A DNA stretch of 64,000 nucleotides from a virus (IMGVR_UViG_3300046167_000801), one strand, 5' to 3'. Counted from the first letter of the stretch, positions 38,358 through 64,000 are shown. Numbers and translations are program-made. The notes: a model not told the origin generated them from the letters alone.

Positions 38358-38369
38358 GTTTAAGAATTT

Positions 38370-38777: not shown

Positions 38778-38832
38778 TTTCTTTTTTTAAAAAAATTACT
38801 TATATTTTATTTTAAAACAAGTAATTACTATT

Positions 38833-40911: not shown

Positions 40912-41665
40912 AAATATTGCATGTATGTGTACGATGTCACATCAACACAATAGGTTAGATACCGATTGGTTACCTCTTATAACCAAAGATAATTATGATA
41001 AGGAATTAATTGTTGATGTTACAAAAGACCAGTCATTTAAACCCGGTTTTCACTTTACCGAGGATGAGGTTAGAACAAATCTTAATTTTCCACATAATGT
41101 AAGTAAGAGACATTATTGGAATAGTCATGGTAACAGGAACATCATTTGGTTTCATGCACATTTACGTATGTTAAATTTTTACTTATCTAATCCTGATTAC
41201 GAATATTATTGGTTTTTCGATGATGACGTAAGAATAGATGATTGGAATTCATTTTTAACTCAGACAGATACAGATGATTCCGATTTCATATCATATTTTG
41301 TATTTAAAAAAGATGGGGTTAATAGTCAACCTAATGTCCCTGTGATAGATAATAGAACAACATCATCACACATGTGGTTAGAGAGATTCCCTGGTGACGG
41401 GGATACACTACCGGATGGTATTACAGAATGGTTTGGTTCATTCTTCCCTACAGTAAGGTATTCTAACAGGGCAATGAAAAAATTATTAGAATTAAATAAT
41501 CAAGGTTACCATGGTTATGGTGAAGGGTTTGTACCGACAGTCTTAAATCAATGTGGTATGAAAATAACAAGTTTAATTACTTCAAATGATGATTCTAATT
41601 TATTTGATTTTGGAAACAATAAAATTTGGCACAAAAACACAATTGTAGATTGGGCATGGATATAA
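40904..41665 (+). CDS. glycosyltransferase-like protein
   Basis: YEYYWFFDDDV DxD motif in glycan cluster. Confidence 0.55.
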   Translation: MSRNIACMCTMSHQHNRLDTDWLPLITKDNYDKELIVDVTKDQSFKPGFHFTEDEVRTNLNFPHNVSKRHYWNSHGNRNIIWFHAHLRMLNFYLSNPDYEYYWFFDDDVRIDDWNSFLTQTDTDDSDFISYFVFKKDGVNSQPNVPVIDNRTTSSHMWLERFPGDGDTLPDGITEWFGSFFPTVRYSNRAMKKLLELNNQGYHGYGEGFVPTVLNQCGMKITSLITSNDDSNLFDFGNNKIWHKNTIVDWAWI

Positions 41666-48942: not shown

Positions 48943-48975
48943 AGAAAAATAACTATTTATATAAAAAATTAACGA

Positions 48976-51090
48976 ATGAAATTAATTGACATTATACAAG
49001 AATCACCAATAGAAGGTGGTGAACAACAGGTAGGTGAACAAGTAGCGGCACTGAAAGGTTTTCTAAAAGGGGTTACTAACCTAACTATTAAATCTGTAAG
49101 AGCAGCAAAACCCGTATTAGCAAAGGACTTACAAAAAGTTTTTAATGCCAAGTCAATTCAAGGTATTAATAAAATAGATGATTTAGTTGTTGCGTTAGGT
49201 AAAGGTACTTTGAAGGGTAAGGCTTTAGGTGATGTTACTATTGGTTTTATGAAAACTAAAGGGGTAAGTTCTAACTATATTGCCAGATTGGCTCCTGAGT
49301 TTGTAAACACACCATCTTTCATTAAGAAATATGCAAAAGACGGTAAGAAACTTACTACTGCATCTTTAAAATCAAGTGGTTATACCGATAATGCGATAAA
49401 GGAGATACTGAAGGCGTCTAAGGGTAGTAATAAATTCCAAAACGCATTGAAATCGTCTAAGACTATTGGAACAACTACTAAGACCGTCGGAACAACTACT
49501 AAGACCGTTGGAACTACCTCTAAGACTGTAGGACAGGCGGCAGTTAATTTAGGTAAGAAGGTTGTTCAAAAAGGTAAAAAATATATAACACCAATTTCAA
49601 AGAGACCTGGAGGAATTATTAAAACGGCCGCCAAGGGAGTATTTAGATTGGGTAAGGGTATAGTAGGTTTAGGTTTACTTAAACTTTTACTTATTTGTGG
49701 TGTAGGTTACATTGGTTATAAATGGTGGACTAGAGTAAAAGGAGATCTACCTGAGTTTCCATCAGATAGTGATTTAGAAGCTACAAAGAATTGGATGGAG
49801 TGTATAGTTAATGCACTTGAAGGGGATGAAAGAGCACACGATATTGTAATAGGTGAAAATAAAAATAGTATTCAATATGATATTGATAGATTCGCTGGTG
49901 AAGATACAGGTGGTTATTTGACCTTCTATGACGATTATACAGTTAAAAGTAAAAACGGTAAAACAGGTAAGTGGGATTGTAATGTTACAAAAAACTTAAA
50001 AGAACAATCAGAGGGTGAGGTTACGAGTCAAATGATTAGTTCAGCAATCACACAATTAGATGATCAATTAAGTGGTGATTTCTTTGAGGGTGATTCTTCT
50101 GATATGCAAGATGCATATAAAATACTTAAATCTTTAGAAGGTACCACCTATAAAGGAAAAGACACAATACAAGTTATAAAAAATAATTACCCTAAAGTCA
50201 CGGGGAAGAAATTGTCAAGTCATATAGGTAATCTAACTAATTTAGATTTTTCCGCAATTGAATTACGTGATGAAATGTTAAAAATGATAGGATCTTCACC
50301 TAAGAAAAAAGGTGGTGGTTCACAAGGAGATTCGGATGACAAGGGAGGATCAAAAGATAATGATAATCTTAACCATTTAACAGTAGTTTGGGACAAGTCT
50401 GAAGGTGGTGGAGGATCTAAAGGATCTAAATACAAACAATGTGATGATTTCCCATTAAACTTATATTGTATATCTGATAAGATTAAAGAAGTACAAAAAT
50501 GTTTAAACCCGACCGCTAACTTAAAGGTGGATGGTTATTACGGTCCTTTGACATTAAAGGCAATGAGGGATAGTTCATTATTTGCAGATGATAAAAAGGA
50601 TGATACTAACATCACTAAAGTAATATATGACAGAATCATAGATAAATGTAACAAGGCTAAAGATGCGGTCAAAGACGCCGACGGTAAAGCGGTTAGACCT
50701 AAAGTAGAACCTATAGAAAAATTAAAAATAAAACCTATAGAAATAGTAAAATTAGACCCTATCAAAATGATTGATACACACGGTGTAGAAAATTTATTGG
50801 ATCAAACTAAGAAGAGGATTGATGGTGAGAGAATCTCGGCCATTATAAGTGATAAAGTAAAGTTCCGTGGAGGAAGATATGTACTTAAAATGGACAACGA
50901 ACTGACAGAGAAACAATTAAAAGTTATAAATCAGGTCATGGCAGGTAGAGGTTTTAGTTTAGATAAGAAGAAAGAGACGTTGAAAGACAATAAATACGTG
51001 TGGACCACTAAAGATAGAGATTCAAGAAAGATTGCACGTAAACAGAATTCAATAGACAACATAAGATCGAAAAACGATGATAAAAAATAG
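48976..51090 (+). CDS. large putative virion protein with TM segment and peptidoglycan-binding domain
   Basis: GLGLLKLLLICGVGYIGY TM; IKEVQKCL...VDGYYGPLT. Confidence 0.6.
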   Translation: MKLIDIIQESPIEGGEQQVGEQVAALKGFLKGVTNLTIKSVRAAKPVLAKDLQKVFNAKSIQGINKIDDLVVALGKGTLKGKALGDVTIGFMKTKGVSSNYIARLAPEFVNTPSFIKKYAKDGKKLTTASLKSSGYTDNAIKEILKASKGSNKFQNALKSSKTIGTTTKTVGTTTKTVGTTSKTVGQAAVNLGKKVVQKGKKYITPISKRPGGIIKTAAKGVFRLGKGIVGLGLLKLLLICGVGYIGYKWWTRVKGDLPEFPSDSDLEATKNWMECIVNALEGDERAHDIVIGENKNSIQYDIDRFAGEDTGGYLTFYDDYTVKSKNGKTGKWDCNVTKNLKEQSEGEVTSQMISSAITQLDDQLSGDFFEGDSSDMQDAYKILKSLEGTTYKGKDTIQVIKNNYPKVTGKKLSSHIGNLTNLDFSAIELRDEMLKMIGSSPKKKGGGSQGDSDDKGGSKDNDNLNHLTVVWDKSEGGGGSKGSKYKQCDDFPLNLYCISDKIKEVQKCLNPTANLKVDGYYGPLTLKAMRDSSLFADDKKDDTNITKVIYDRIIDKCNKAKDAVKDADGKAVRPKVEPIEKLKIKPIEIVKLDPIKMIDTHGVENLLDQTKKRIDGERISAIISDKVKFRGGRYVLKMDNELTEKQLKVINQVMAGRGFSLDKKKETLKDNKYVWTTKDRDSRKIARKQNSIDNIRSKNDDKK
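49459..49532 (+). repeat. 21-bp in-frame tandem repeat (KT[IV]GTT[TS] x3.5)
   Basis: aagactattggaacaactact / aagaccgtcggaacaactact / aagaccgttggaactacctct. Confidence 0.85.
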
Positions 51091-51769
51091 ACAACACATG
51101 AAATCAAATTTAATCAGTTCTTTAGTAAACAAAGAATTAAATGAAAGATTTAATTTAAATAATGATTTAAGACTCTTTTTAGAGAGTATGGAAGGTCAAG
51201 ATGATGTAGAGAACGACGAAAAGGATATAAAGACCTTAGACACGATTATAGGTGTGTTAGACAAGGTTAAGGATACTGACATGTCTGATGAAGAAATAGA
51301 ACAAAGTATGGACGAAGGAATTCTTGATTCTTTGGGTTCTTTATTAGGTTTAACGGGAGACGTTAATAATCCAGGTGAAGGTGGTGTTGGGGACATTGCC
51401 TCAGGAACTGCAATGACACAAATGAAAGAATGGTTGATACGTAAATTCTTAATAAATTTCATGGGAATGGATAGTGGAAAATTAGTCAGTTTCCTTTCAG
51501 GTTCTTTATCCGAACTTAGTGTATCCGCATTACTTTCAATTGCTCAGGGAACAACTAACTGTAAGGAACATAGTGACGAAATTGCAGATGCATTTATGAT
51601 CGGTATATCAAGAATGATAATGGGAGATGCGGAACGAGATTCTATGGGTTATAATGTATTGAAGAATGTAATGGATGAATTCCTTAAAAATTCTAATGCT
51701 GGAGAATATATTTCCGAGAAAGTATGTTCATTTGACCTTAGAGGTTCTATAAAATCTTCATTTTCATAA
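51077..51769 (+). CDS. hypothetical protein
   Basis: 230-aa ORF continuing the operon. Confidence 0.65.
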   Translation: MIKNRQHMKSNLISSLVNKELNERFNLNNDLRLFLESMEGQDDVENDEKDIKTLDTIIGVLDKVKDTDMSDEEIEQSMDEGILDSLGSLLGLTGDVNNPGEGGVGDIASGTAMTQMKEWLIRKFLINFMGMDSGKLVSFLSGSLSELSVSALLSIAQGTTNCKEHSDEIADAFMIGISRMIMGDAERDSMGYNVLKNVMDEFLKNSNAGEYISEKVCSFDLRGSIKSSFS

Positions 51770-51922
51770 AACTAAAAAAAAATGTTAATTAACCTCACAA
51801 ATGTGGGGTTTTTTTATGACTAAAAGATATTTATAGTTATGAGGTCAGTACTTTGGTCGGTACTTGATTGATAAACGAAAATAAACGAAAAGGAGGTGAA
51901 TTAATAATCTCGACAAAGGGGT

Positions 51923-52234
51923 CTATCGACCTCTTTGTTTGTTTACAATACTTTGTAATTCATTAAGTGTTTGTTTCTTCTGACTATCAATCTTAGTAAT
52001 TCTCTGAGTCTCATATTTTTTCATGTATTTCTCCTCAAATGTACTACCCACCCCTAATTCTACTATAGTTGCTTCATCAGGAATTAAAGGTTTTCTTTTT
52101 TTGGTTGTAATAATATCATCCACATAGACATTTTCAAATACTTTTAAATAATATTTGTCTTTCTTTCGGTATGTTATTTTATAAACTACAACAACAGGTA
52201 TCTTCATATTTTTGATCATAAAAAAAGGGACCAC
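51923..52234 (-). CDS. hypothetical protein (start probably MKIPV)
   Basis: ORF downstream of tmRNA. Confidence 0.5.
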   Translation of the reverse strand: MVPFFMIKNMKIPVVVVYKITYRKKDKYYLKVFENVYVDDIITTKKRKPLIPDEATIVELGVGSTFEEKYMKKYETQRITKIDSQKKQTLNELQSIVNKQRGR

Positions 52235-52257
52235 TGAGGATCCCTTTTCACACTTAG

Positions 52258-52640
52258 TGGAGGTGGAGGGTTTCGAACCCTCGTCTTGCTCGTCCCAACC
52301 ATAGAGGACTACACGTTTAGGTCAATATCGATTCTCAATATTCCGAAATATGTGATTGAATTTTTACATCCTCCATCACCAATAGATGTACGACTCGATT
52401 TAAGGTTCAGTCGTTTTTCTACCTTTGTAAGACTTCTGTTCCTAGGTTATATGTCCCGACCCGTTGTAGAGATAACCTTAGGCTACCGCTACTTTAGAAT
52501 CAACAGATACAAGACCCATTAATCCCATTTGTGAATAAACGTCTCCGTCTAAAAAACATCTCCATAGATTTAAGTGATAGGAAATATCTCACTACGTGCC
52601 CTGTTATAATTGACTACGCCAATCAATTCCAGTCACCCCC
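52258..52640 (-). ncRNA. ssrA: tmRNA
   Basis: 5' GGGGGTGACTGGAATTGATT pairs with 3' CACCTCC-A including G3.U70; T-arm GAGGGTTCGAAACCCTC; internal ORF ending GTAGCGGTAGCC TAA. Confidence 0.9.
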
Positions 52641-52645
52641 ATTAA

Positions 52646-52882
52646 TTACTTAACTTCTTTCAAAGAGGGACCATCACCTTTTGAAGGTTTTCTTCTTGGT
52701 TTTCTTCTTGGTTTCTTCTTAGGTTTTGTAAAATCCTCTTCGAATTTTTCAAACTTTTCGACCTTAGGTTTTCTCTTTGGTCTTGGTTTTCTCTTTGGTT
52801 TAGGTTTGGAAACCTCAACAGGTTTCACTTCTTCCTTTTTAACTCCGAAAAGTTTCTTAAAAAAATCTATAATTTTTCTCAT
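52646..52882 (-). CDS. basic K/P/R-rich small protein
   Basis: KPKPKRKPRPKRKPK repeats. Confidence 0.55.
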   Translation of the reverse strand: MRKIIDFFKKLFGVKKEEVKPVEVSKPKPKRKPRPKRKPKVEKFEKFEEDFTKPKKKPRRKPRRKPSKGDGPSLKEVK

Positions 52883-52934
52883 AATTTATTGTTTATAGGT
52901 AAATATACCTCTATTAGTGTAAAATGTAAAGGTT

Positions 52935-53612
52935 TTATTCTTGAGTTGTGCAATCCAACGGAAAATTTTTCTCATACAACGCCTCAAAGAACAGTTTGTT
53001 TTTTAACCATTTCTTGTCAGTTTCTCCGATAGATTTATGATAAAGTTTAATTTTGGTGGTTACTCCCACTTTAACACCTTCTAAATGATTGAGTACACAT
53101 ATTGGTAAATCATAGAAATGAAAACCTTCAAAACGATCATCAAAGTTTTTCTTAATCCTATTTTTATTTATCATCATGAATAATCCGTCAATGATCACGA
53201 CCTCCTTTATATTGTCCCCAAAAGATTTTGAATATTTTGACATGTATTTTTGTGGACCATTAATATGACCTACCTGTCCTTGCATATTTTCTCTGTGTTG
53301 CCACCATTGACCTGATACTAATTTATCAGTACCCGCAAGACCTAAAATACCATAATCGGGGTTTCTATCGAATAATTTTATGATTTTAGGTGTAAGGTTT
53401 TTAGTTTCAAACTCTAAATCATCATGTATAAAAACAACAATATCATTTTTAGATTTCTCTAAACCTTCATTATATATGTCGGTTAAAGATCTATCCCCAT
53501 TGTTCTCATAGACTAAATATTCATTTTTAGGGTGAGAAAAGAACTTCTTTACGTGATCTAAATAATTTTGTTCTATTTTACGTGTTGAATAAACTACAGT
53601 TATTGTATTCAT
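52935..53612 (-). CDS. glycosyltransferase family 2-like protein
   Basis: YN.GLE.SKNDIVVFIHDD ... IDGLFMM ... FEGFHFYD. Confidence 0.75.
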   Translation of the reverse strand: MNTITVVYSTRKIEQNYLDHVKKFFSHPKNEYLVYENNGDRSLTDIYNEGLEKSKNDIVVFIHDDLEFETKNLTPKIIKLFDRNPDYGILGLAGTDKLVSGQWWQHRENMQGQVGHINGPQKYMSKYSKSFGDNIKEVVIIDGLFMMINKNRIKKNFDDRFEGFHFYDLPICVLNHLEGVKVGVTTKIKLYHKSIGETDKKWLKNKLFFEALYEKNFPLDCTTQE

Positions 53613-53995
53613 AAAAGGTGTTTTCAGGAAGTGTAAAATGAAATATAAGTAAAATTAATTATTTAATCAAGTGTGTTTAAAATTTCTTCCAATGCTCGTT
53701 GGTATAGAGGTACCATCATATCACTTGTTTTTATTTTAGGTTGGTCCATTTTAGAAACGTGATTACGTAATCTTTCTGTAAGTCCCAATTTATGGGCCCT
53801 ATAGAATATCTCCTCTATTTCGTCACTACTTGACCAACTCATTACTTATAACTGTCTATTTTTTGTTGTAATTTCTGAATCTGTTTTTTTATCTCTTTAG
53901 TTTGTTGTTTAAACTTAAGTTTTAAAATCTCAGAAATAACTCTTTTTTTATCTATGAACCCCATATTAATAAGTATGTCAATTTATTGAAATTTA

Positions 53996-54072
53996 TGGTG
54001 GACCTTGATGGGCTCGAACCATCGACCTATCCGTTATGAGCGGAGTGCTCTAACCAACTGAGCTAAAAGTCC
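53996..54072 (-). tRNA. tRNA with CAT anticodon, probably Ile2 (lysidine type)
   Basis: GGACTTTTAGCTCAGTTGGTTAGAGC...CTCATAA...GGTTCGAGCC...TCCACCA. Confidence 0.85.
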
Positions 54073-54088
54073 TTTATTTAACACTTTG

Positions 54089-54162
54089 TGAACCCGGTAG
54101 GATTCGAACCTACGACCGTCTCCTTAGAAGGGAGATGCTCTATCCAGCTGAGCTACGAGTCC
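54089..54162 (-). tRNA. tRNA-Arg(TCT)
   Basis: Cloverleaf, anticodon loop CTTCTAA, TTCGAATCC; CCA not encoded. Confidence 0.9.
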
Positions 54163-54166
54163 ATTT

Positions 54167-54255
54167 TGGTACCTCGGGCCGGGGTCGAACCGGCACGGAC
54201 ATTACTGTCCACAGGATTTTAAGTCCGGCGTGTCTACCAATTCCACCACCGAGGC
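54167..54255 (-). tRNA. tRNA-Leu(TAA)
   Basis: Long variable arm, loop CTTAAAA, encoded CCA. Confidence 0.9.
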
Positions 54256-54366
54256 ATGGTGTAAATGTAAGAACGAATATTAATAAAATCAACCCCCTAC
54301 CCCATATAAACAAAAAAACCCCACATTTCTGTGGGGTTTACTATCATTCTTTAACGTTTATTTTGA

Positions 54367-54690
54367 CTAATCAGTCAATACTTGTTTAGATGTTTTTACG
54401 GGTTCACACCCATCCTTATCGATCTTAGTTATCCTATTCTCGAATTTATCAAACCTACTATCGATATGTCGATATAGGTCATCTACTCGGTCTTCAAGGT
54501 TCTTAACCTCTTGATCCACTCTAAGGTGAATCTCTCTTTGATTATTATCTAAATCTAATTGTGTTCCATTTATGACTTCCTCGAAATCATTAGAACGTTG
54601 TTTAACCTTAACTATACCTACTATAGCGTACCCTAAACCGAACACACCAATTGCTGTAAGCATACCTAAAACGAATTCTAAATTTTCCAT
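54367..54690 (-). CDS. membrane-anchored coiled-coil protein
   Basis: N-terminal TM, heptad pattern. Confidence 0.6.
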   Translation of the reverse strand: MENLEFVLGMLTAIGVFGLGYAIVGIVKVKQRSNDFEEVINGTQLDLDNNQREIHLRVDQEVKNLEDRVDDLYRHIDSRFDKFENRITKIDKDGCEPVKTSKQVLTD

Positions 54691-54733
54691 AATTTTTAAT
54701 TTTAATTTAGTTTATGTCAAAGAACGATAGTTG

Positions 54734-54805
54734 TACTCCGTAGGAGAATCGAACTCCTATTACCAGGATGAAAACCTGGCGTCCTAACCGTTAGACGAAC
54801 GGAGC
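54734..54805 (-). tRNA. tRNA-Glu(TTC)
   Basis: Loop TTTTCAT in CCAGG/CCTGG stem, GTTCGATTC. Confidence 0.9.
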
Positions 54806-54995
54806 TATAATCTCCAAATCCTCACTTTTTTAAGTGGTAGCCAGAGTCGTATTGTTTTCAAAATAAGGTATTCCTTAAATCTTCTAACCATACTTTATAA
54901 ATAATACGATTTTTTTTTCATTTAATCAAATGTAAATAACAAAGTATTTATAGTAAGGTCAAGTGATTGACCCATAAAAAGTAAAAATTAAAGTT

Positions 54996-55229
54996 ATGGC
55001 ATTTAAAGACTTATTTAAAGATGAAAACGACATCAACGAAAAATCAGTTGTAGGTTTTCTGTCATTCGCGATAATGGTTTTATTCGCGTTTGCTGATTTA
55101 CTTACAGGGTACTTTGGTAAGGACCTTGTAATTAATGAGTTTATTTATAACTCATTTGTAGTTATTACATTAGGTTCTTTTGGTATTGCTGAGGTTGGTA
55201 AGATCTTCGGTAAAAAAGGACAGGAATAA
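54996..55229 (+). CDS. putative holin (2 TM)
   Basis: Two hydrophobic helices, charged termini, directly upstream of amidase. Confidence 0.5.
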   Translation: MAFKDLFKDENDINEKSVVGFLSFAIMVLFAFADLLTGYFGKDLVINEFIYNSFVVITLGSFGIAEVGKIFGKKGQE

Positions 55230-55241
55230 AAAAATAAAATT

Positions 55242-56123
55242 ATGATTTTAAAAATTGGATCAAGAGGGAAAGAAGTCAAAGAACTTCAAGAATTTCTTGA
55301 AATCGGAGCGGATGGTATCTTCGGTTCAGGAACTGACTCATCAGTTAAAGAATGGCAGTCCAAAAATGGTTTGGGGGTTGACGGTATTGTCGGTCCTGCC
55401 ACTTGGGACGCTATGGGTCTTGCTACTACTGATAATTCAGAAAAAACGTATGAAACGGAAAACGGTTTGATAATAAACCGACATTTCTTACCTGTTGGTG
55501 AGTACAAACAAGGACCCACAAATAAAGAATACGCTTTTATACATCACACAGCGGGGTGGCATAACCCATACAATTGTATTGACCAATGGTCGAGAGATAG
55601 TAGGGGTGCAGTCGCAACCGAATTCGTATTAGGTGGTCAATCGGTTAAAGGAAATGACACTAAATATGACGGTGAAGTTGTACACGCGTTCCCTGAAGGA
55701 TCGTATGGTTGGCATTTAGGTAAAAACGGATCTCAACACATGCACACTCACTCGGTTGCTATTGAGGTATGTAACTTCGGTTATGTGAAAGATGGTAAAA
55801 CATATGCAGGTACAAGAGTTGCGGAAGATCAGATAGTTACATTATCACAACCATTCAGAGGTTACAAAGATTGGCATAGATACTCTGACAAACAAATTGA
55901 ATCACTACACAAATGGATTCTTTGGATATCTGAGAGAGATAGTATTGATGTACGTAAAGGTCTACCCGATCTTATTCGTAAGATAGGTGTATCTGCCTTT
56001 GAATTTCAAGAAGACGCATATTACGGAAGAGTTAAAGGACTATGGACACATACAAATACACGTAAGGATAAATCTGATATGTTCCCACAACAGGAACTTA
56101 TCGATATGTTGTTAAGTCTATAA
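55242..56123 (+). CDS. endolysin: peptidoglycan-binding + N-acetylmuramoyl-L-alanine amidase
   Basis: ADGIFGSGT...VDGIVGPATW; FIHHTAG, AWHLG-like GWHLG, AIEVCN, THTN.RKDK.D. Confidence 0.85.
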   Translation: MILKIGSRGKEVKELQEFLEIGADGIFGSGTDSSVKEWQSKNGLGVDGIVGPATWDAMGLATTDNSEKTYETENGLIINRHFLPVGEYKQGPTNKEYAFIHHTAGWHNPYNCIDQWSRDSRGAVATEFVLGGQSVKGNDTKYDGEVVHAFPEGSYGWHLGKNGSQHMHTHSVAIEVCNFGYVKDGKTYAGTRVAEDQIVTLSQPFRGYKDWHRYSDKQIESLHKWILWISERDSIDVRKGLPDLIRKIGVSAFEFQEDAYYGRVKGLWTHTNTRKDKSDMFPQQELIDMLLSL

Positions 56124-56144
56124 TTAAACTATATAGGTTGGTGT

Positions 56145-57344
56145 ATGAAAAATTTAATAAGATTTATCGTATTCTCTATTTTATGCACCAATGCGTATGG
56201 TCAAACTACTACAGTAAACATAAGGTCACTTAAGACTCATTACGGTGGGAATCAATCAGGTCAATATTATACAGGTAATGCTAATTCGCACTCAGAATTT
56301 GACGCTATGGTTAATCTTGCCGATGGCGGTACTACACTCTATACAGAAGGACCTGTAGATATAACAAGTTATCAAGGTCCAAGAGGTGGTAATCATACTC
56401 CTTATCAACTATGGAACCCACCAAGATGGAGTACTAATAGTGGAAGGTATGCAATTATTTATTCTGGTTGGTTTAAACCTAACAAATCAGGTACATATCG
56501 ATTTAGAACTTTCACAGATGACTCACATGAGTTTATGATTAAAGGTATTGGTAAGACTAATGATATAGTTACTAAACATTATGGTTGGAATGTATGGGCT
56601 TATGGTACGGCAACCCTAGATAAAACTGTATGGTATGAATTTGAATATAGAATACAGAATTTTGGTGGTATAGGTGCTGCAAATTTCCAATATGAAATAC
56701 CCGCTAACTACAATACAGGTCAATTTAATCAACTCAGTCCTAGTCATCCATTTGCAGAATGGTCTGCTACCGACCCTAACGCTGTACCAATCACGGCAAG
56801 TGGTTATATTAAAGGGGGAGAAGAACAAGGTATTGGAGGACAAACAGTTTATCTAAAGACACAGAATAAAAATCAAGTCGGTTTTTCATATACGACTCAA
56901 GCAACAACAACAACAGATTCAAATGGGTATTATTCTTTTAATACCACATTAAATTACAACGATTACGATTTTACAATAGATATTAATCCGTCATTAGGAA
57001 CACTTATAACCACAGATATAAATTGGTTTCAAGATAGATTATTATCAGACACATTCAGTTCAAAAGATTATTGGAGAATGGATGTGAATAATACAGGTTC
57101 GTTTTCTGTCTCTGATATCTATCTAATGCACCAGAGGAGACACGGTAACATTTCTAGTTACCCTGGTGGGGGACAAGAAATATGGAACACAAATTCTTGG
57201 CAAAACCCAACCATTTGGCCGGCAGTTGCTGCGGATTCAGACGATAAAACGATATACGTTGGTTACGGATCATGGTCTCTATTTGATTTAGCCAATGGAA
57301 ATCAGACAACATTCTATTTATTAAGAGTAGGACATAAAAATTAA
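56145..57344 (+). CDS. secreted PA14-domain protein with dockerin-like C-terminus
   Basis: Signal peptide; YSGWF.P..SGTYRF.TFTDD; DVNNTGSFSVSDIYL. Confidence 0.65.
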   Translation: MKNLIRFIVFSILCTNAYGQTTTVNIRSLKTHYGGNQSGQYYTGNANSHSEFDAMVNLADGGTTLYTEGPVDITSYQGPRGGNHTPYQLWNPPRWSTNSGRYAIIYSGWFKPNKSGTYRFRTFTDDSHEFMIKGIGKTNDIVTKHYGWNVWAYGTATLDKTVWYEFEYRIQNFGGIGAANFQYEIPANYNTGQFNQLSPSHPFAEWSATDPNAVPITASGYIKGGEEQGIGGQTVYLKTQNKNQVGFSYTTQATTTTDSNGYYSFNTTLNYNDYDFTIDINPSLGTLITTDINWFQDRLLSDTFSSKDYWRMDVNNTGSFSVSDIYLMHQRRHGNISSYPGGGQEIWNTNSWQNPTIWPAVAADSDDKTIYVGYGSWSLFDLANGNQTTFYLLRVGHKN

Positions 57345-57362
57345 AAAAGTAAAAAAAAAACG

Positions 57363-58457
57363 ATGAAACTTAAAAACATTTTTCTAACACTATCTTTGCT
57401 AATTGGTACGATGACTGTCTTCGGGCAGACGACTTCACCTGACGCAACTAAACCTTATATTATCTTTGATTCAACTTACACTTTAGAATCCACCTCATCA
57501 ACCTCAAACACAACATTTGACATTTATTACGATAATACGTCGGGTAATGATGTTAAAGGTATTCAGTTTTCATTTAATTATGATAACACGGTATTTGATG
57601 AACCCACTTTAACATATAACAATACATCTGGCCCTGCCGGGTATTTGTCTTATGATGTCGATTCAACAAGTGGAGTTATAAAAGTGGTATGGGTTTATTC
57701 AGGATCATCTACCACTTTCGATATGATTGCGGGTAACATGTTTACAGTAAATGCCCCTTTTCTTTCTAACTATACAAACTCGGCAGTTGCGGACGTAGAT
57801 TTTACTACCGACCTTACCGCTTATTATGTAAAGTCTGATGGGACTGATGGGGTATTGGGTACACAAGATAATGGTGGTAATTTTATAGAACCGGCATTTG
57901 ATTATACCGCCACAATTCTAAATAGTGGGACAAATCCAGCAGACTCTATTGATGTAATATTACAAAAATCGTCAGATGGTTCGTCTTGGACAGATGTTAC
58001 CACAGTAACAACCAACTCGAATGGGGAGTCGGTGTTCTCAGAAAATTTAGATCAGGATTATTGGCAAATTAGACTCAAGATTGCAAGTGGTTTAGATGCG
58101 AGTACCGCACTATCAACTGCAGATGCTAATATGATCGCACAAATTGCTGCGGGGGTACAATCACCATCAGGAATTCAGTTCTATACTGCGAATACAAATC
58201 AAAATAATGGAATTACCGCATCGGATTCATATATGGTATTCTCTAGATTAGCACAAGGTAACTCAAGTTATTCTTCTAATCCAGATGTATTGTTCTTTAC
58301 TGAAGCACAGTATACTACTATTAGTAGTGCAACATCAGATCAGTCTAGTTCTATACCGGGTCTAACGGAGTTTTTATCTCCATTAATTAATAACACAACT
58401 ACGGGTAACTTCTACTTATTAATATTAGGAGATGCCAATGGAACAGGTTTAAATTAA
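57363..58457 (+). CDS. secreted cohesin-like + dockerin-like protein
   Basis: Signal peptide; KGIQFSFNYDNTVF; LSTADA..IAQ ... NTNQNNGITASDSY. Confidence 0.6.
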   Translation: MKLKNIFLTLSLLIGTMTVFGQTTSPDATKPYIIFDSTYTLESTSSTSNTTFDIYYDNTSGNDVKGIQFSFNYDNTVFDEPTLTYNNTSGPAGYLSYDVDSTSGVIKVVWVYSGSSTTFDMIAGNMFTVNAPFLSNYTNSAVADVDFTTDLTAYYVKSDGTDGVLGTQDNGGNFIEPAFDYTATILNSGTNPADSIDVILQKSSDGSSWTDVTTVTTNSNGESVFSENLDQDYWQIRLKIASGLDASTALSTADANMIAQIAAGVQSPSGIQFYTANTNQNNGITASDSYMVFSRLAQGNSSYSSNPDVLFFTEAQYTTISSATSDQSSSIPGLTEFLSPLINNTTTGNFYLLILGDANGTGLN

Positions 58458-58458
58458 T

Positions 58459-59196
58459 ATGAGATTATTATTACTGACATTAGTATTAATATTCACAACA
58501 AGTGCACAATCTCAGGTCGTATTTAATGTACCTGAGATTGAAGTACCTGTAAGTGATTACATTAATCTACCCATAGAAATTGAAACTGAGGGTGAGATTG
58601 TCGGTAGTCTTGAATTTGCATTGAATTACGATCCAAACTATTTAGAGTTTGTGTCAATTACGGTGACACCCAAGGCACAGGAGTGGTTAACCTATACAAT
58701 GGACTGGGAAGGCGAAACTGTTAGATGGGGAGGTTATGATCCCTCCTTCGGTAATTTTACCATAATCAATACAACAGAATTATTTACGGTAAGATTTAAA
58801 GTTACTGATCAAAATTGGACAGAAATTCCAATTACAATAGGTAGGAAAACTGCGGGTACCGAATTAGGTTGGGATATTGAAGTTGAAAATACGGATGGGT
58901 ATGTTAATAAACGATCAATGCCTTTCGATACTAGACCTACTGACGGTATTTATGGGATTGTTTATCCAGTCCCAACTAAAGGTCCCATTACGTTCGACCT
59001 GACAGTACCAGATAATGGAGATTATATTATTAGAGTATTAAACTATGGGGGATTAGAATTTTTAAAAGAGAGGAAGTCTTTTTTCGCGGGATGGGTACAA
59101 TTTCAAATGGACTTATCTTCATTACCACAAGGTGTTTATCTCTTACATATTACTAACGGACAATTTGTAAAAACATTTAAAACAATAAAACAATGA
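58459..59196 (+). CDS. cohesin-domain protein with T9SS (Por) type A sorting domain
   Basis: Signal peptide; GSLEFALNYDPNYLEF; IVYPVPT ... DLSSLPQGVYLLHI.NG....FKTIKQ. Confidence 0.75.
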   Translation: MRLLLLTLVLIFTTSAQSQVVFNVPEIEVPVSDYINLPIEIETEGEIVGSLEFALNYDPNYLEFVSITVTPKAQEWLTYTMDWEGETVRWGGYDPSFGNFTIINTTELFTVRFKVTDQNWTEIPITIGRKTAGTELGWDIEVENTDGYVNKRSMPFDTRPTDGIYGIVYPVPTKGPITFDLTVPDNGDYIIRVLNYGGLEFLKERKSFFAGWVQFQMDLSSLPQGVYLLHITNGQFVKTFKTIKQ

Positions 59197-59450
59197 GTAA
59201 AAATAAAGGATTTTTTTCAGAAATTAAAAACCAAATAGTAACAGGTATTGGTTTAGTTATAACGGCGGGTTTCGGACTATTAATTGCTAACATGCAATCT
59301 GTATTTGAACCTAAAGAAGAAAAGGTAAATTTACCTGTCATGGAACAAAAAATAAATACCCCAAGTAGTATAAAGGATACTTTGGTAATAACTAAAACAA
59401 TTGTTATACCTCCTAAGAAAGAGAAAAAAGAAGAAGACATAACATGGTAA
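59193..59450 (+). CDS. small single-TM protein
   Basis: IVTGIGLVITAGFGLLIA helix. Confidence 0.6.
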   Translation: MSKNKGFFSEIKNQIVTGIGLVITAGFGLLIANMQSVFEPKEEKVNLPVMEQKINTPSSIKDTLVITKTIVIPPKKEKKEEDITW

Positions 59451-60148
59451 GAATATTTTTAATTATATCGTTACTATTAAGTTTTACAGTTAAGGCTCAA
59501 TTAGGTAAAACAGAGACCGAAAATTATAAAGGTAAGTTTGAACAGGATATTGATATAGATGAGGTATCTGATTATATGTTAGATTACCAATTACCAATCC
59601 AAGTTTTAAATATTGGTTTTACACCGGAGTTATATGAATTTTACCCCGAATTAAGAGAAAATAGGGTGGGATTAGGTGTTAGTAACATAACTCTATCTTA
59701 TTTGGAATGGACTGATAGATTTTTATTTACGGAAGATAAAGAAGAAATTAAACAAAGAATGGTTAAACAACATAAGGCAGCTGCAAAAGGAATATCATCT
59801 AACGATATTAAGGTTGTGGGTAATGTTGTTTTAGCGGAGTATTTTGTTTATGTCGAAATATATGATTATTCGGTATCTGAAGAAGAGGAAGTTACAATTG
59901 ACGGGGTGAAGACCGTACTAAAAACTATTATTGGTATGCAGGTAAGATTTGTTAATGCTGAGAACGGTACCATTTTTACAGGAAGTGGAAGTGGTGAGGC
60001 GGTCACAATAAAAAGAACTAAAATTGGTTCCGTTAATGATGTAAAGTTCAATAAATCAACAATTGGTATTGCAACTAAAAAGGCGTTGGAATCTGGAACG
60101 GCTCGTATTGTAAAAAGAATGATTAAACGTGGGATATTTGAAGAATAA
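59444..60148 (+). CDS. CsgG-like secreted protein
   Basis: Signal peptide; GLGVSNI...TDRF; AEYFV...I.D ... MQVRFVNAE.GTI..GSG.G; IG.A.KKALE. Confidence 0.6.
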   Translation: MVRIFLIISLLLSFTVKAQLGKTETENYKGKFEQDIDIDEVSDYMLDYQLPIQVLNIGFTPELYEFYPELRENRVGLGVSNITLSYLEWTDRFLFTEDKEEIKQRMVKQHKAAAKGISSNDIKVVGNVVLAEYFVYVEIYDYSVSEEEEVTIDGVKTVLKTIIGMQVRFVNAENGTIFTGSGSGEAVTIKRTKIGSVNDVKFNKSTIGIATKKALESGTARIVKRMIKRGIFEE

Positions 60149-61478
60149 AATAATTGCGGTAATATTATTTTTATTACCATTGGTTGGTTACGGTCAGTGG
60201 TCCTACACGTTTACAGATCCCTGTACTTTAAATCAACAAACAATTCAGATGGGTTCAAGTGATGAAATTGTTCTGAATTATTTTGGTAACGTACAGACAT
60301 TCACACAGCTCGATTTTACTAATGGTACTTTTGATTCGTGGATGAACATAGTTACTCAATCTAACTCTTCAAACCCATGTCAAGAAATATCCCAAATAGT
60401 TACTAATAATACAAATGCAGTGATAGTTCAAAATACTATCACAGTAATTACAAATATAATGAGTGTTTTGGGTGGGGACATGTTACCACAGGCACTATCA
60501 TCATCAGGTGTCCCCGTGGCGGAGGCCATCGATAACGCATCAAAAAAGAAGAAGAAAAGAAAGAAGGGGAAGAATAATACTAAAACCGAAAATTCTAAAG
60601 AACAATCCGTAGGATCCAATAACAAAAGCGAGAATAGGGGTGAATCTAACAATAGTTCTGAACAGTCTAACGAATCAGGTTCTAATGAAACTAACGGTAG
60701 TCAAGGTAACACTAACGAAAACGGTACATCGACAGAAGGTAGTGAAACTGCGACTGAAGAGGAATCAAAAGAAGGTGGGTTAACCATGTCTTTGGCAAAT
60801 TCAGTTTCTAATGCAATAGATGGTGGAGAGTCAGACAATAAAAATAGAGGTTCACTAATAGCATCAGGAGATATCGTGGTTATTGATAACCAAGACAATT
60901 CGAATGGTCGACAAATAAAAGTGGTAGGATCTATTACAAGTGCGAATACAAAAAAGAGTAGAGTCCAAGGTGCGTTATTTACATACACAACCGTAACTAA
61001 TGATTTTAGTTTAACTTTCTACAAATCATGGATAAACCCAAATAGGACATTTAATTTAGTGGGTGCAAACACCACGATGACCAACTTTGATCAAAACCAT
61101 TTAAATACAACTACTGTTTTAGAATCATTTAAGTTTGGTAAAAAGAAATTTACGGGTATGGTGGGTGCTAATTTTACAATAGGTAAATTAGGTAAAAGAG
61201 AATTACAAAATCTATCCGCAGTCAGTGGTATTCATAGAAACTTTAGAGTAACTCCGAAGATCACAACATCGGCTCTAATATTGGGGGTGTATTCTCCATT
61301 CACACAGTATTATGAGGGTCAGTGGTGGGACCCTGGATTATTAATAGTACCATTTAGTTCTTGGGATATTCAAATCACAAAAACATTTAAATATAACATC
61401 AGTTTTACGGGAGTTTGGCAATCGGGAGGTAATGCATTAAACTATCAAGTTCTGACTGGTGGTAAAATCAGATTTTAA
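60129..61478 (+). CDS. secreted/outer-membrane protein with N/S/E-rich linker and beta-rich C-terminus
   Basis: Signal peptide; C-terminal GGKIRF. Confidence 0.55.
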   Translation: MGYLKNKIIAVILFLLPLVGYGQWSYTFTDPCTLNQQTIQMGSSDEIVLNYFGNVQTFTQLDFTNGTFDSWMNIVTQSNSSNPCQEISQIVTNNTNAVIVQNTITVITNIMSVLGGDMLPQALSSSGVPVAEAIDNASKKKKKRKKGKNNTKTENSKEQSVGSNNKSENRGESNNSSEQSNESGSNETNGSQGNTNENGTSTEGSETATEEESKEGGLTMSLANSVSNAIDGGESDNKNRGSLIASGDIVVIDNQDNSNGRQIKVVGSITSANTKKSRVQGALFTYTTVTNDFSLTFYKSWINPNRTFNLVGANTTMTNFDQNHLNTTTVLESFKFGKKKFTGMVGANFTIGKLGKRELQNLSAVSGIHRNFRVTPKITTSALILGVYSPFTQYYEGQWWDPGLLIVPFSSWDIQITKTFKYNISFTGVWQSGGNALNYQVLTGGKIRF

Positions 61479-61480
61479 TT

Positions 61481-61918
61481 ATGAAAAATTTACTAATACT
61501 CTTATTATTCCCAACCCTATTATTTTCACAGGTTGATTGTTATTCTATTAAATCAGTAACCACTGAAATTGAAATGGAAGAAATCAGTAAAAGAAGGATT
61601 ACATTCGGTATAAAACAGATGATGGAAGACATTATCTCAGATAAATACAATTTATGTATGGATGGTAAACCGATTGATGTTATTGTACAATCAATAGAGT
61701 CCCCTCAAACAGGGATCCAACTTGGTCCATGGACGAAAGTGAGTAAAAAAACAATTGTTACTTTACTGATCTACATGGACGGGGAAGTGATTGAGGTGGA
61801 AGGAAGAGCCAAATCTACGGTAGAGTCCACATTTATAGATTTACAAAATGATGATATACCTTTTGATAAGACAACATTTTCATCCGCTGTTAAGAAGGCA
61901 ATAGAAAAGGGGATATAA
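61481..61918 (+). CDS. secreted hypothetical protein
   Basis: Signal peptide, last gene of operon. Confidence 0.6.
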   Translation: MKNLLILLLFPTLLFSQVDCYSIKSVTTEIEMEEISKRRITFGIKQMMEDIISDKYNLCMDGKPIDVIVQSIESPQTGIQLGPWTKVSKKTIVTLLIYMDGEVIEVEGRAKSTVESTFIDLQNDDIPFDKTTFSSAVKKAIEKGI

Positions 61919-61948
61919 AAAAACCCCAACAAGGTTTGCTGGGGTTTT
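61917..61948. terminator. bidirectional intrinsic terminator
   Basis: AAAAAAACCCCA..TGGGGTTTT. Confidence 0.75.
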
Positions 61949-62063
61949 AGGTCTATACTGGTTTCAACACCAATAATTTAACGAGAAAAAACGAAAAGGT
62001 ATTCGACAAAGAGTACCTTTGATGTATAAATATATATATTTTTTAAAAAAGTCAAGTTTTTAG

Positions 62064-64000
62064 TTAAATCAGGGGAATATTTTTTGATAATTCCATGTTT
62101 CCGTCTTTAATTTTTAAGATGAAATCGGAATTCTCCGTAATCTCACCTTCTAAAATCTTATCACTTATAAAATCCTCACACAGGTTTTGTATGATTCGTT
62201 TTATTGGTCTCGCACCATACTCTTCTTCAGAATTTCTATTTAAAACTTCTTGACTTACACTACGATCAAATTTTATTTTGTAATCACTCTCGATAAGTCT
62301 TTTTGATAATTTATTTAACTCGATAGTGATAATTTTTTTAAGTGACTTATCTTGTAGTTTATTGAATACAATAATATCATCGATTCTATTTAAGAATTCA
62401 GGACTAAATTTTTGTTTCAATGATTTTTTAATGATTGAGTCTTTTACTTTAGCCCTATCACCGTCAGATGTAAAACCTACACCCCCACCAAAATCGGCAA
62501 CTTTCTTAGCACCGACGTTCGACGTCATTATTATCAAAGTATTAGTAAAATTTACTTTCCTACCAAATGAATCTGTTAACCTACCCTCATCCAATATTTG
62601 AAGTAGGATATTGAAGACATCTTTATGTGCCTTTTCTATTTCGTCAAATAAGACAACTGAAAATGGATTATTCTTAATTTTCTCGGTTAACTGACCACCT
62701 TCTTCAAATCCGACATAACCCGGAGGAGACCCAATTAGTTTGGAAACATTGTGTTTTTCCATGAATTCACTCATATCTACCCTTATAATCTTGTCGGGAT
62801 CTCCAAATAAGGTATTGGCTAATGTTTTTGCTAAGTGTGTTTTACCCACACCAGTAGATCCTAAGAACATGAAAGAACCAATAGGTTTATTATGACCCTT
62901 AACACCAACCCTATTTCTTCTTATTGATTTTGATATGATCTCAACGGCATCGTCTTGTCCAATAACATTTTTGGATATTGTTTTCTCTAAAGATAATAGT
63001 GATTTGGTTTCCTTAGTATCTAATTTATTAATTGGTACCCCTGTGATGTCGGTAATAATATTATAAACATCGTCCACTGAAATAGGTTTCTTATTTAGTT
63101 GTTGTTCTTTATTCCATTTTTTCTTTTCATTATCTAATTTCTTGAGGATCTTTCTTTCTTGATCTCTAAGGTTTGCTGCCTTTTCGTAATCCTGATTCTT
63201 TACAACTTCTAATTTTTTAATTCTAATAGATTCACAACTTTTTTTCAGTTTCTCTATAGATTCTGGTATCTTAATATTTATTTTTTTCTGTGATCCTAAT
63301 TCATCCAAAACATCGATAGCCTTATCAGGGAATTGTTTGTCCGTAATAAATCGTTTACATAACTTCACAATAGTTTCAATTACGTCTTTTTGATAATCGA
63401 CTCTATGATAGTCCTCATAAGAATCTTTTAAATTCTTTAAAATATCGATAGTTTCTACCGTTGTCGGTTCTTCTAATATAATCTTTTGGAATCTTCTTAC
63501 AAGAGCACCGTCCTTCTCAATATTTTTCTTATACTCATCGAAAGTGGTTGCCCCTATACATTGTATCTCACCTCTTGCAAGTGCCGGTTTAAGTATGTTA
63601 GCGGCATCCATAGAACCCGAAGCGTTACCCGCACCAACCATGGTGTGTATCTCGTCAATGAAAATAATCACATTAGGTGCGTCTTGTAGTTCGTTTAGAA
63701 TTACTTTAATTCTTTCTTCAAATTGACCTCTATATTTTGTCCCCGCAACTAAAGACGTTAAATCCAACGACATAATCCTTTTATCTAAAAGATTGGTAGG
63801 ACAGTTACCCGCACTTATAAGTAGTGCAAGTTTTTCCACTAATGCGGATTTACCAACTCCCGCTTCACCAACAATGACAACATTGTTTTTCTTTTTACGA
63901 GATAATATTTGTGCAATACGATGTACCTCTTTATCTCTACCAATGATAGGATCGATATCCCCATCTAATGCTAATTGTGTTAGGTCTCGTGAAAAATTAT
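62064..64000 (-). CDS. ClpA/B/C-family AAA+ ATPase (5' end beyond window)
   Basis: DPIIGRDKE, GEAGVGKS, AGTKYRGQFEER, FIDEIH, GQDDA, FLGSTGVGKT, DMSEFMEKH.VSKLIGSPPGYVG, YGARP. Confidence 0.93.
   Translation of the reverse strand, partial: NFSRDLTQLALDGDIDPIIGRDKEVHRIAQILSRKKKNNVVIVGEAGVGKSALVEKLALLISAGNCPTNLLDKRIMSLDLTSLVAGTKYRGQFEERIKVILNELQDAPNVIIFIDEIHTMVGAGNASGSMDAANILKPALARGEIQCIGATTFDEYKKNIEKDGALVRRFQKIILEEPTTVETIDILKNLKDSYEDYHRVDYQKDVIETIVKLCKRFITDKQFPDKAIDVLDELGSQKKINIKIPESIEKLKKSCESIRIKKLEVVKNQDYEKAANLRDQERKILKKLDNEKKKWNKEQQLNKKPISVDDVYNIITDITGVPINKLDTKETKSLLSLEKTISKNVIGQDDAVEIISKSIRRNRVGVKGHNKPIGSFMFLGSTGVGKTHLAKTLANTLFGDPDKIIRVDMSEFMEKHNVSKLIGSPPGYVGFEEGGQLTEKIKNNPFSVVLFDEIEKAHKDVFNILLQILDEGRLTDSFGRKVNFTNTLIIMTSNVGAKKVADFGGGVGFTSDGDRAKVKDSIIKKSLKQKFSPEFLNRIDDIIVFNKLQDKSLKKIITIELNKLSKRLIESDYKIKFDRSVSQEVLNRNSEEEYGARPIKRIIQNLCEDFISDKILEGEITENSDFILKIKDGNMELSKNIPLI

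Follow-up and report, generated by a model that had tools for sequence, protein, structure and literature searches.

A conserved phage cassette joining cohesin, lectin-type and CsgG-family proteins to a type IX secretion sorting domain: a candidate scaffold on the surface of infected Bacteroidota

Bacteria and archaea are known to build extracellular enzyme complexes on cohesin-dockerin scaffolds, and phage genes for type IX secretion system (T9SS) cargo and for CsgG are each on record once or twice, with no function assigned. Here we describe a locus in which these elements are joined with a plug-in lectin: seven open reading frames (ORFs), g1 to g7, on the + strand at positions 56145-61918 of the viral sequence IMGVR_UViG_3300046167_000801, of which a stretch of 64,000 nucleotides (nt), hereafter the window, was analysed. 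Its source is a large marine phage of Flavobacteria. Its parts are of known kinds: a scaffold of cohesin-dockerin type, T9SS cargo, and a CsgG-family protein accompanied by a probable barrel. We give a probability of roughly 0.5 to the view that this envelope cassette is conserved and specific to phages, that it is expressed together with the lysis genes and that it puts a lectin-tipped cohesin scaffold on the infected cell.

In architecture, the cassette resembles the anchoring end of the cellulosome of C. thermocellum and, more broadly, cohesin-dockerin pairs outside cellulosomes. The CohI9-X-DocII fragment of CipA (structures 3KCP and 4FL4) shows the module order that we predict for g2, the cohesins of g2 and g3 are type-I-like by fold or by hidden Markov model (HMM), as in the cellulosome, and the base, adaptor and tip proposed below would parallel an anchoring scaffoldin, an adaptor and a dockerin-bearing subunit. 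However, the cassette belongs to a phage of a Gram-negative host, its anchor would be the C-terminal sorting domain (CTD) of T9SS cargo rather than SLH or sortase, and the subunits that would plug into it are lectins, never enzymes. The helical module also differs from a dockerin: it has one canonical Ca loop and an additional conserved subdomain of ~65 residues, and Dockerin_1 is not matched.

Type A sorting domains have been described once before on phage proteins. In the 'Cryophage' paper (Bellas et al. 2020, PMC7468147), this Bacteroidota phage is reported to encode proteins with such domains, including a PA14 protein; the cargo genes are hypervariable between variants, and hijacking of the host T9SS was proposed. 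Unlike in the cassette, the Cryophage cargo consists of single proteins (an endoglucanase, a GH39 enzyme and the PA14 protein), every one of which has a CTD of its own; the words cohesin and lectin do not occur in that paper, and no dockerin, CsgG-family or barrel partners are described in the passages covered (PMC7468147).

The other precedent concerns CsgG. Marine myophages, namely pelagimyophages and the Methylophilales phage Melnitz, carry CsgG/CsgF 'curli' genes, a small exported-protein operon that the host lacks, for which 'sibling capture' and lysis timing have been proposed (PMC7029224, PMC9004378). Melnitz has a transfer-messenger RNA (tmRNA) in addition to its CsgG genes (PMC9004378), and so has the window. 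The genes of these phages encode recognisable proteobacterial-type CsgG and CsgF, whereas g5 can be reached only through intermediates and has no lipobox; furthermore, g5 sits in a cohesin/lectin/T9SS cassette of Bacteroidota phages, in which no CsgF, CsgE or curlin was detected.

Phage T5 makes Llp, a small lipoprotein that binds FhuA and blocks this receptor on the infected cell and on debris. Llp and the cassette share no homology, and the likeness would be one of function: the possible pay-off of a glycan-binding coat laid down near lysis. Searches of the literature on phage cohesin, dockerin and T9SS, on Flavobacterium phage cohesin and on phage Por_Secre_tail returned no description of the cassette.

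Cohesins, sorting domain and exchangeable head of g1 to g3

The original prediction had placed seven contiguous genes after the endolysin gene, six of them with signal peptides, and all seven ORFs were recovered at the expected positions, separated by anything from a 20-nt overlap to an 18-nt gap (Table 1). The Sec signal peptides (g1, g2, g3, g5, g6 and g7) have an N-terminal h-region that ends in G, A or S followed by Gln; cleavage between G/A/S and Q fits the 'Q-rule' that Bacteroidota substrates of signal peptidase I follow. The domain assignments of the prediction largely passed checks against Pfam, TIGR04183 and structures. Those of g3 held in full: it matches Pfam Cohesin (PF00963) over residues 22-128 with 37.5 bits (gathering cut-off, GA, 24.1), and its extreme C-terminus (residues 168-245 of 245; nt 58960-59193) matches both TIGR04183 (28.9 bits, cut-off 23) and Por_Secre_tail (PF18962; 32.0 bits, GA 27). 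Thus, g3 has the two features of a T9SS type A cargo protein, a C-terminal sorting domain and an N-terminal Sec signal.

The cohesin-like and dockerin-like domains proposed for g2 fared differently, in that the former is supported by predicted structure whereas the latter has no Pfam match. Window g2 as a whole has no match in Pfam either. In an alignment of 50 members (g2 relatives and g1 tails), 13 match Cohesin at E <= 0.1, six of which are fused forms. An AlphaFold2 model of g2 computed from a 50-row alignment (pLDDT 87.1, pTM 0.77) consists of a signal peptide (residues 1-21), a cohesin (27-178), an X/prealbumin-like sandwich (179-240) and a three-helix dockerin-like region (241-300). Residues 27-178 superpose on the C. 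thermocellum cohesin 3UL4_A with a VIA Z score of 14.8 and a root mean square deviation of 2.7 A over 139 of 142 residues, and the first 48 rows of a VIA search with the model are all cohesin entries. The top Foldseek matches are the CipA fragments 4FL4 and 3KCP (E 5e-9 to 1e-7) rather than lone cohesins, and VIA aligns model residues 30-301 end to end with residues 8-307 of 3KCP_A (240 residues). At the sequence level the agreement is weak: hhalign relates the g2 and g3 families at E 1.7e-4, and the two best matches of g2 in a search of PDB sequences are cohesins, at E 0.025 and 0.099. An independent BFVD model of the g2 orthologue in the cultured Flavobacterium phage vB_FspM_immuto (hereafter immuto) agrees with our g2 model (TM 0.81). 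By predicted structure, g2 has a cohesin, and its modules follow the order cohesin, X and dockerin-like, as at the end of a scaffoldin.

The tail of g2 recurs in g1: the two proteins share the prealbumin-like sandwich, the dockerin-like module and the ~65-residue C-terminal subdomain, which in g2 ends in an invariant GDANGTG. In the g2 model, residues 241-300 form a loop-helix, a short helix and a second loop-helix (helices 252-262, 270-276 and 286-298), as in a dockerin. The second loop is canonical, with invariant N at position 3 and D at position 12; it reads DVNNTGSFSVSD in g1 (12 residues, 313-324; nt 57081-57116) and NTNQNNGITASD in g2 (residues 277-288). In the first loop, the Asp at position 12 is invariant in one alignment (A1) and nearly so in another (A12). 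The possibility that the C-terminal subdomain of g1 and g2 is a hidden T9SS CTD was rejected; it matches no CTD HMM and is internal in the fused proteins described next.

In one clade, g2 and g3 form a single protein of 633-643 residues and the g1-type gene follows g7; a fused form from an uncultured phage is also present in UniProt. Natural fusion argues that the two proteins act jointly. A related arrangement was seen at L044 (4572-6699), where a cohesin protein of 589 residues is followed by a separate 118-residue ORF with a weak Por_Secre_tail match (20 bits); possibly, this pair is a fused g2-g3 gene that was split by a frameshift or an assembly error.

Preceding the dockerin-like module, g1 has a signal peptide (residues 1-19), a head (residues ~22-215; nt 56208-56789) and the prealbumin/X-like sandwich (residues 217-290). 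The head had been called PA14-like and the tail dockerin-like, and each call stands in part. Pfam PA14 (PF07691) scores 16.5 bits, below its GA of 24, whereas the five PDB matches of a head family profile (E up to 10) are all PA14 proteins, among them RsgI3 (the best, E 6.3e-4), Epa9 and Epa1; for the tail there is the loop given above and no Dockerin match. The head of locus L027, which can be aligned with that of g1, reaches 29 bits against Pfam PA14, above the cut-off, and the motif G-x-Y-x-F-x4-DD is kept between the two.

This head varies between cassettes. Close relatives that are 70-89% identical to the window over g2 to g7 have GEVED in place of PA14, homology restarting at residue ~215. 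A census of 38 non-redundant g1-type proteins gave Lectin_C (12), Laminin_G_3 (8), GEVED (7), PA14 (2) and Ig_7 (1), and a catalytic domain in none of the 38. The g1 head is an exchangeable cassette among phages and never an enzyme; with no catalytic head among these 38 variants, we rejected a display of enzymes as on the cellulosome. Furthermore, contigs of the seawater DNA run X12, which is not the likely source, end or diverge at 56202 and 56790, the borders of the g1 head, and carry variants at 90-95% identity inside it, which suggests that head variants co-occur in one seawater sample.

The swapping of heads resembles that of receptor-binding proteins, and the sugar-nucleotide and glycosyltransferase genes of the window could glycosylate a partner. 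Both would fit a role in which the secreted lectin and cohesin proteins bind released virions outside the cell as add-on adhesins. We regard this role as highly improbable: among virion proteins, none was identified that has a cohesin or dockerin partner, the structural genes are at a distance from the cassette and none of its seven proteins matches a PHROG structural family, and extracellular assembly onto virions has no known precedent.

Envelope proteins g4 to g7

That g5 is CsgG-like, as had been proposed, was confirmed through intermediate homologues. Whereas g5 itself has no direct match to Pfam CsgG/HfaB (PF03783), its profile recovered 282 proteins from 1.8 billion representatives, and 18 of the 38 full-length homologues match Pfam CsgG (best 63.7 bits) and nine match LpoB. 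Two of the intermediates clear the GA of 20.8 over model positions 9-191 of 210: P0156 (E 4.5e-32 to g5) with 27.2 bits and P0187 with 63.7 bits. Beyond the viral clusters, the language-model look-alikes of g5 are CsgG/HfaB clusters (0.94). These intermediates mark g5 as a probable member of the CsgG family at the superfamily level. Two further searches gave little: a broad g5 profile (A7) run against the PDB was spoiled by fused kinase rows and reached CsgG at E 0.8 only, and a fold search with a poor AlphaFold2 model returned assorted common alpha/beta arrangements, which included CsgG and LptE but were not decisive; CsgG (6LQH_A) aligns with this model at Z 7.5 over 133 residues, among unrelated folds of similar Z.

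No lipobox Cys is present at the cleavage site of g5 and 12 close relatives, whose signal peptides end in A, G or S followed by Q; distant homologues have a ..GC.. consensus. Lipoproteins and fusions to kinase or caspase domains make up the distant relatives, and the g5 fold therefore need not be a pore. Among bacterial relatives, P0205, P0207 and P0216 are fused to Peptidase_C14, and P0210 and P0225 to a Ser/Thr kinase; in those fusions, the CsgG/LpoB-like domain seems to be an extracytoplasmic module, not a pore.

In its C-terminal half, g7 is related to the corresponding half of g5 (hhalign E 5.8e-5, probability 66%), and Cys20 and Cys59 of g7 are invariant across its relatives. An invariant pair, Cys32 and Cys84, is likewise present in the N-domain of g6 (residues 23-135). 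This domain is followed by a linker (residues ~136-240) that is of low complexity, rich in S, N, G, T, E and K, and not made of repeats; in the family, its length is hypervariable, from 60 to ~250 residues. The C-terminal ~210 residues of g6 show, by eye, an alternating, barrel-like pattern ending in ..LTGGKIRF, and the family C-terminus has a conserved G, a hydrophobic residue and a terminal F, L or I. These features, together with language-model look-alikes among the small outer-membrane barrels Tsx/OmpK, NfrA_C, KdgM and YaiO (0.92-0.93), agree with the earlier view of g6 as an outer-membrane-type protein, whereas its profile found no match in PDB sequences or Pfam. We consider g6, as a lead, to be a stalked outer-membrane barrel. 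A classical autotransporter was considered for g6 and rejected, since the invariant Cys pair of the N-domain argues for folding in the periplasm.

The g4 protein has no cleavable signal; its cluster (c20) has 17 members, including immuto gp016, and its position between g3 and g5 is kept in the loci inspected. Searches with NCBIfam and Pfam returned nothing for g4 to g7 and low-complexity noise only for 19 relatives each of g6 and g7, and no Pfam match to CsgA/CsgB curlin repeats, CsgE or CsgF was obtained in the seven proteins or the g7 relatives. Mature g1, g2, g3 and g5 contain no Cys. This distribution suggests that the g6 N-domain and g7 stay and fold in the oxidising periplasm and that g1 to g3 are built for the outside; from the Cys pairs, about half of the cassette would therefore be an envelope sub-assembly and not part of a displayed scaffold. 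Divergent cassettes (L030, L033, L035, L043 and L046; e.g. L030, 8702-9049; L036, 10206-11015; L043, 11513-12334) hold extra small exported or membrane genes, of a family of 115-190 residues between g4/g5 and g6 and a family of ~270 residues before g7, neither with a Pfam family.

A candidate surface scaffold and the points that weigh against it

We propose that g3, with its cohesin and type A CTD, passes through the host T9SS and forms the base at the cell surface. The adaptor g2 would plug into g3 by its dockerin-like module, and g1 would in turn plug into g2, giving a non-covalent chain of base, adaptor and tip in which the tip binds glycans; the cohesin-dockerin pairing of g1, g2 and g3 is inferred from the predicted folds. 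The remaining proteins may form a sub-assembly of the periplasm and outer membrane, made up of g4 in the inner membrane, g5 with its short relative g7, and the g6 barrel, whose long disordered tether would end in a periplasmic head held by a disulfide bond. Its role would be either to anchor the scaffold or to provide a way out for g1 and g2. The most likely purpose would be that the infected cell and its debris become coated, around lysis, with a glycan binder matched to the strain. Such a coat could mask receptors, and so act against superinfection and the loss of progeny on debris, or could hold neighbouring host cells close.

Several observations weigh against this scaffold. The weakest link is how g1 and g2 would cross the outer membrane. 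Of the scaffold proteins, g3 alone has a CTD, none having been detected by HMM in g1 or g2, and we know of no route by which folded proteins without a CTD pass the outer membrane of Bacteroidota. Three options can be envisaged: g1 and g2 may travel piggy-back on g3 through the T9SS, they may use a g5 ring, or they may not pass at all. It should also be noted that many type A CTD proteins of Flavobacterium are released and not anchored. The second weakest link is the identity of the dockerin. Pfam Dockerin (PF00404, GA 22.9) does not match g1 or g2, and four of 50 relatives match Dockerin_1 below threshold (15.3-19.1 bits), mostly in a clade with a more canonical DVNGD loop. The first F-hand loop is degenerate and lacks ligand residues, so that one canonical loop is found in place of the two 12-residue Ca loops of a duplicated F-hand. 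A profile of the g1/g2 tail found no dockerin in the PDB at E <= 10, the best match (E 0.15) being an unrelated EF-hand-like loop. Because of the sub-threshold Pfam scores, the single good Ca loop and this PDB result, we call the module dockerin-like and not a dockerin. Moreover, the fused clade keeps the module although g2 and g3 are covalently linked, and it may therefore do something other than bridge these two. Finally, neither the barrel call for g6 nor the fold of g5 has structural support, the AlphaFold2 model of g5 (13 close sequences) having a pLDDT of 50. The scaffolded surface display through the host T9SS of the original prediction stands as far as its parts list and phage origin are concerned, whereas a known route for g1 and g2, a point that the prediction passes over, is lacking. 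The pay-offs put forward there, superinfection exclusion, particle attachment or grazer avoidance, are neither favoured nor disfavoured by the evidence.

It is also conceivable that g3 alone leaves the cell and that g1, g2 and g5 to g7 stay in the periplasm, where the lectin would bind peptidoglycan or precursors of lipopolysaccharide or capsule and alter envelope biogenesis. Such a complex would account for the Sec signals and missing CTDs of g1 and g2; conserved Cys pairs, as in the g6 N-domain and g7, are typical of periplasmic proteins, and the kinase and caspase fusions of distant g5 relatives show that the LpoB/CsgG fold can serve as a soluble module outside the cytoplasm rather than as a pore. 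However, the g2 part of the fused proteins leaves with the CTD of g3, heads of the C-type lectin, PA14, LamG and GEVED types are typical of surface adhesins, and to our knowledge cohesin-dockerin systems are extracellular and Ca-dependent in all cases studied. We therefore think that retention of these proteins in the periplasm is quite unlikely.

Returning to the surface scaffold, a more specific version of it can be imagined, although we hold it to be rather doubtful. The cassette might encode an outer-membrane machine of the phage's own, in which a lipid-free g5 ring, with g7, is docked to the stalked g6 barrel and g4 and exports g1 and g2, which lack Cys and a CTD, in unfolded form; these would fold with Ca outside and polymerise on g3 through cohesin-dockerin contacts to form a non-covalent fibre with an exchangeable lectin tip, which, produced at the same time as the lysis proteins, masks strain-specific glycan receptors on debris or captures neighbouring hosts. 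If true, this would be a new kind of cell-surface organelle built by a phage.

More generally, hundreds of contigs from phages of aquatic Bacteroidota, which are major degraders of algal carbon, contain the cassette. If it re-dresses the surface of the infected cell, it would represent a new way in which lytic phages control events at or after burst, such as receptor masking, host capture and particle attachment, and it could illuminate how phages of Bacteroidota handle the outer membrane. These ideas are directly testable because all seven genes are also present in a cultured system, phage immuto with Flavobacterium sp. LMO8.

Phage origin, lysis genes and genomic setting

All seven genes are present in the same order in immuto (gp013-gp019). 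Compared with the window, g2, g3 and g5 to g7 are 42-59% identical and g4 is weakly similar (37% over 43 residues); of g1 the tail only is conserved, the head being a C-type lectin. The GenBank labels are limited to 'lectin C-type' for gp013 and 'cohesin domain-containing' for gp015, and the papers that mention immuto deal with other topics. Because immuto, which shares this full set and its order, is a plaque-purified phage, the phage origin of the cassette is secure, as the original prediction had it. A search with g5 retrieved 39 IMG/VR viral contigs (up to 168 kb), with the order of the components kept wherever they are covered, and one with the g1 tail 138 viral stretches (on contigs up to 373 kb); the 333 relatives of g2 in the protein collection all lack a name. 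The closest relatives of the window itself are IMG/VR viral contigs, and a megablast of positions 48000-64000 against GenBank phages gave no match. Among 185,579 species genomes, the cassette was found in six, all as contigs of metagenome-assembled genomes (MAGs) from Flavobacteriaceae, Bacteroidetes or Sediminibacterium, one of them a 248-kb contig 97% identical to the window, and in no isolate genome. None of 300 further genomes from the family of one of these MAGs (G001) has a g5 relative, and SprA is present in two of three MAGs that hold such phage contigs, which is indirect evidence that secretion would depend on the host T9SS. By this comparison of phage with host genomes, the cassette is phage-specific.

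Proteins of the g3 type, with cohesin and CTD, and CsgG-family lipoproteins do exist in bacteria, and the segment might in principle be bacterial DNA joined in by misassembly, or an operon lately captured from a host and without a role in the phage. We find this hardly credible. The same gene order recurs in the independent assemblies L005, L021 and L041, and 14 seawater DNA runs contain at least 96% of the sampled words of the stretch; the assembly is therefore real, with no sign of the misassembly that would have undermined the prediction. In addition, the same junctions occur in the cultured phage, the order is kept across phage clades down to 25-55% identity, the GC content of the cassette region is level with that of the rest of the window, and the cassette was not found in the 300 sampled same-family genomes or in any isolate genome.

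In most clades, a holin-like gene, an endolysin gene or both adjoin the cassette, although order and enzyme vary. In the window and in L005, L021 and L041, an Amidase_2 endolysin gene lies upstream; in L030-L039 and L046, an amidase gene follows the cassette directly. A sister clade has another lysis set, a holin-like gene with GH19 (33.7 bits) and Phage_holin_4_1 (28.6 bits), which comes after g7 in L022 (10733-12017) and L026 (5490-6786) and is located ~3 kb upstream of g1 in L036 (884-2187). Homologues of the holin-like gene are directly beside the cassette in L005, L017, L019-L026, L034, L040, L041 and L044; no endolysin gene is as constant a companion of the cassette as this one. Exceptions are immuto, L027 and L029, where lysis genes do not adjoin the cassette, the immuto endolysin gene being ~6 kb away. 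That holin and endolysin genes recur beside the cassette suggests that it acts when the cell lyses or afterwards.

In three studies, contigs assembled from RNA libraries match parts of the endolysin gene and of g1 to g6, most with at least 99% identity, and bridge the endolysin gene to g1 (X17, 55122-56307) and g1 to g2; they show presence only, so that uncovered parts carry no meaning, and because they may derive from DNA carry-over we take them as weak evidence of expression. The T4-type late promoter word TATAAATA has 19 matches versus 15 expected, and we therefore draw no claim on timing; a sigma-70 promoter scan is uninformative for Bacteroidota.

The same neighbourhood raises the question whether the cassette, or at least g4 to g7, breaches the outer membrane or times lysis in place of spanins: after cleavage of the wall by the endolysin, g4 in the inner membrane, the long tether of the g6 barrel across the periplasm and the CsgG-family proteins would link or perforate both membranes. 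For the CsgG of phage Melnitz, a part in the timing of lysis has been proposed (PMC9004378). The cassette stays beside holin-like and endolysin genes in most clades despite their varied order and endolysin type, no spanin-like pair is visible next to the lysis genes of the window, g4 is bitopic, and g6 would combine a barrel, a disordered linker of 100-250 residues and a disulfide-bonded N-domain. On the other hand, neither fusing nor puncturing membranes would call for seven genes that include lectin heads, two cohesins and a T9SS tag, and a swappable glycan-binding head points to an external ligand. The cassette also lacks the two components of a spanin pair, a coiled-coil inner-membrane protein and a small outer-membrane lipoprotein: none of the six signal peptides has a lipobox, and no coiled-coil i-spanin was found, g4 having 85 residues only, with coiled-coil prediction not run on it. 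Moreover, the cassettes of immuto, L027 and L029 stand apart from lysis genes, and adjacency elsewhere may reflect shared late timing only. In our opinion, an accessory role in lysis is unlikely.

Table 1. Positions of the cassette genes and of other features in the window
Feature	Position	Strand	Evidence or remark
sugar-nucleotide/glycan genes, first part	23439-24365
second ORF with endolysin similarity	20589-21623	+	weak matches to endolysin PHROGs (E 4e-7 to 7e-6); distant from lysis cassette
sugar-nucleotide/glycan gene block	37323-44083
UDP-galactopyranose mutase-like ORF in this block	42965-44083		54-57% identity to Glf in phage records
tmRNA	52255-52640	-	Rfam RF00023, 65 bits versus 47; ~3.5 kb upstream of cassette
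tRNAs (Met, Arg, Leu, Glu)	53996-54255 and 54733-54805	-	near tmRNA
holin-like ORF, 77 residues, two hydrophobic helices	54996..55229	+	no Pfam family
endolysin, PG_binding_1 and Amidase_2	55242..56123	+	Pfam, 52.5 and 34.2 bits, both above cut-off; 21 nt 5' of g1
g1, 399 residues: signal peptide, PA14-like head, X-like sandwich, dockerin-like helices, C-terminal subdomain	56145..57344	+
g2, 364 residues: signal peptide, predicted cohesin, X-like sandwich, dockerin-like module, C-terminal subdomain	57363..58457	+
g3, 245 residues: signal peptide, cohesin, T9SS type A sorting domain	58459..59196	+	Pfam and TIGR04183 above curated cut-offs
g4, 85 residues: small single-pass inner-membrane protein	59193..59450	+	one transmembrane helix, residues 14-34
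g5, 234 residues: exported, divergent, probable CsgG/LpoB-superfamily protein	59444..60148	+	profile intermediates
g6, 449 residues: signal peptide, two-Cys N-domain, linker, probable outer-membrane beta-barrel	60129..61478	+	sequence features
g7, 145 residues: exported two-Cys protein, C-terminal half related to that of g5	61481..61918	+	hhalign
hairpin, 13-bp stem, T runs on both sides: bidirectional terminator	61920..61948		ends operon and convergent Clp ATPase gene
ClpA/B-type AAA+ ATPase, convergent with cassette	62064-63998	-	phrog_4871, 793 bits; continues past window end

Beyond the cassette, the window has further features of a phage: four tRNAs, a tmRNA, an HNH endonuclease and many short ORFs without a family; PHROGs offered no useful family for any of the seven cassette proteins. 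The ClpA/B-type ATPase gene, which in the window shares the terminator of the cassette, recurs as a neighbour of the cassette in L002-L005, L021 and L041. The glycan block includes, in addition to the mutase-like ORF, a glycosyltransferase (phrog_24687, 598 bits), a dehydrogenase and a nucleotide-sugar epimerase; these enzymes could change the glycans of the host surface, which are likely ligands of the lectin heads.

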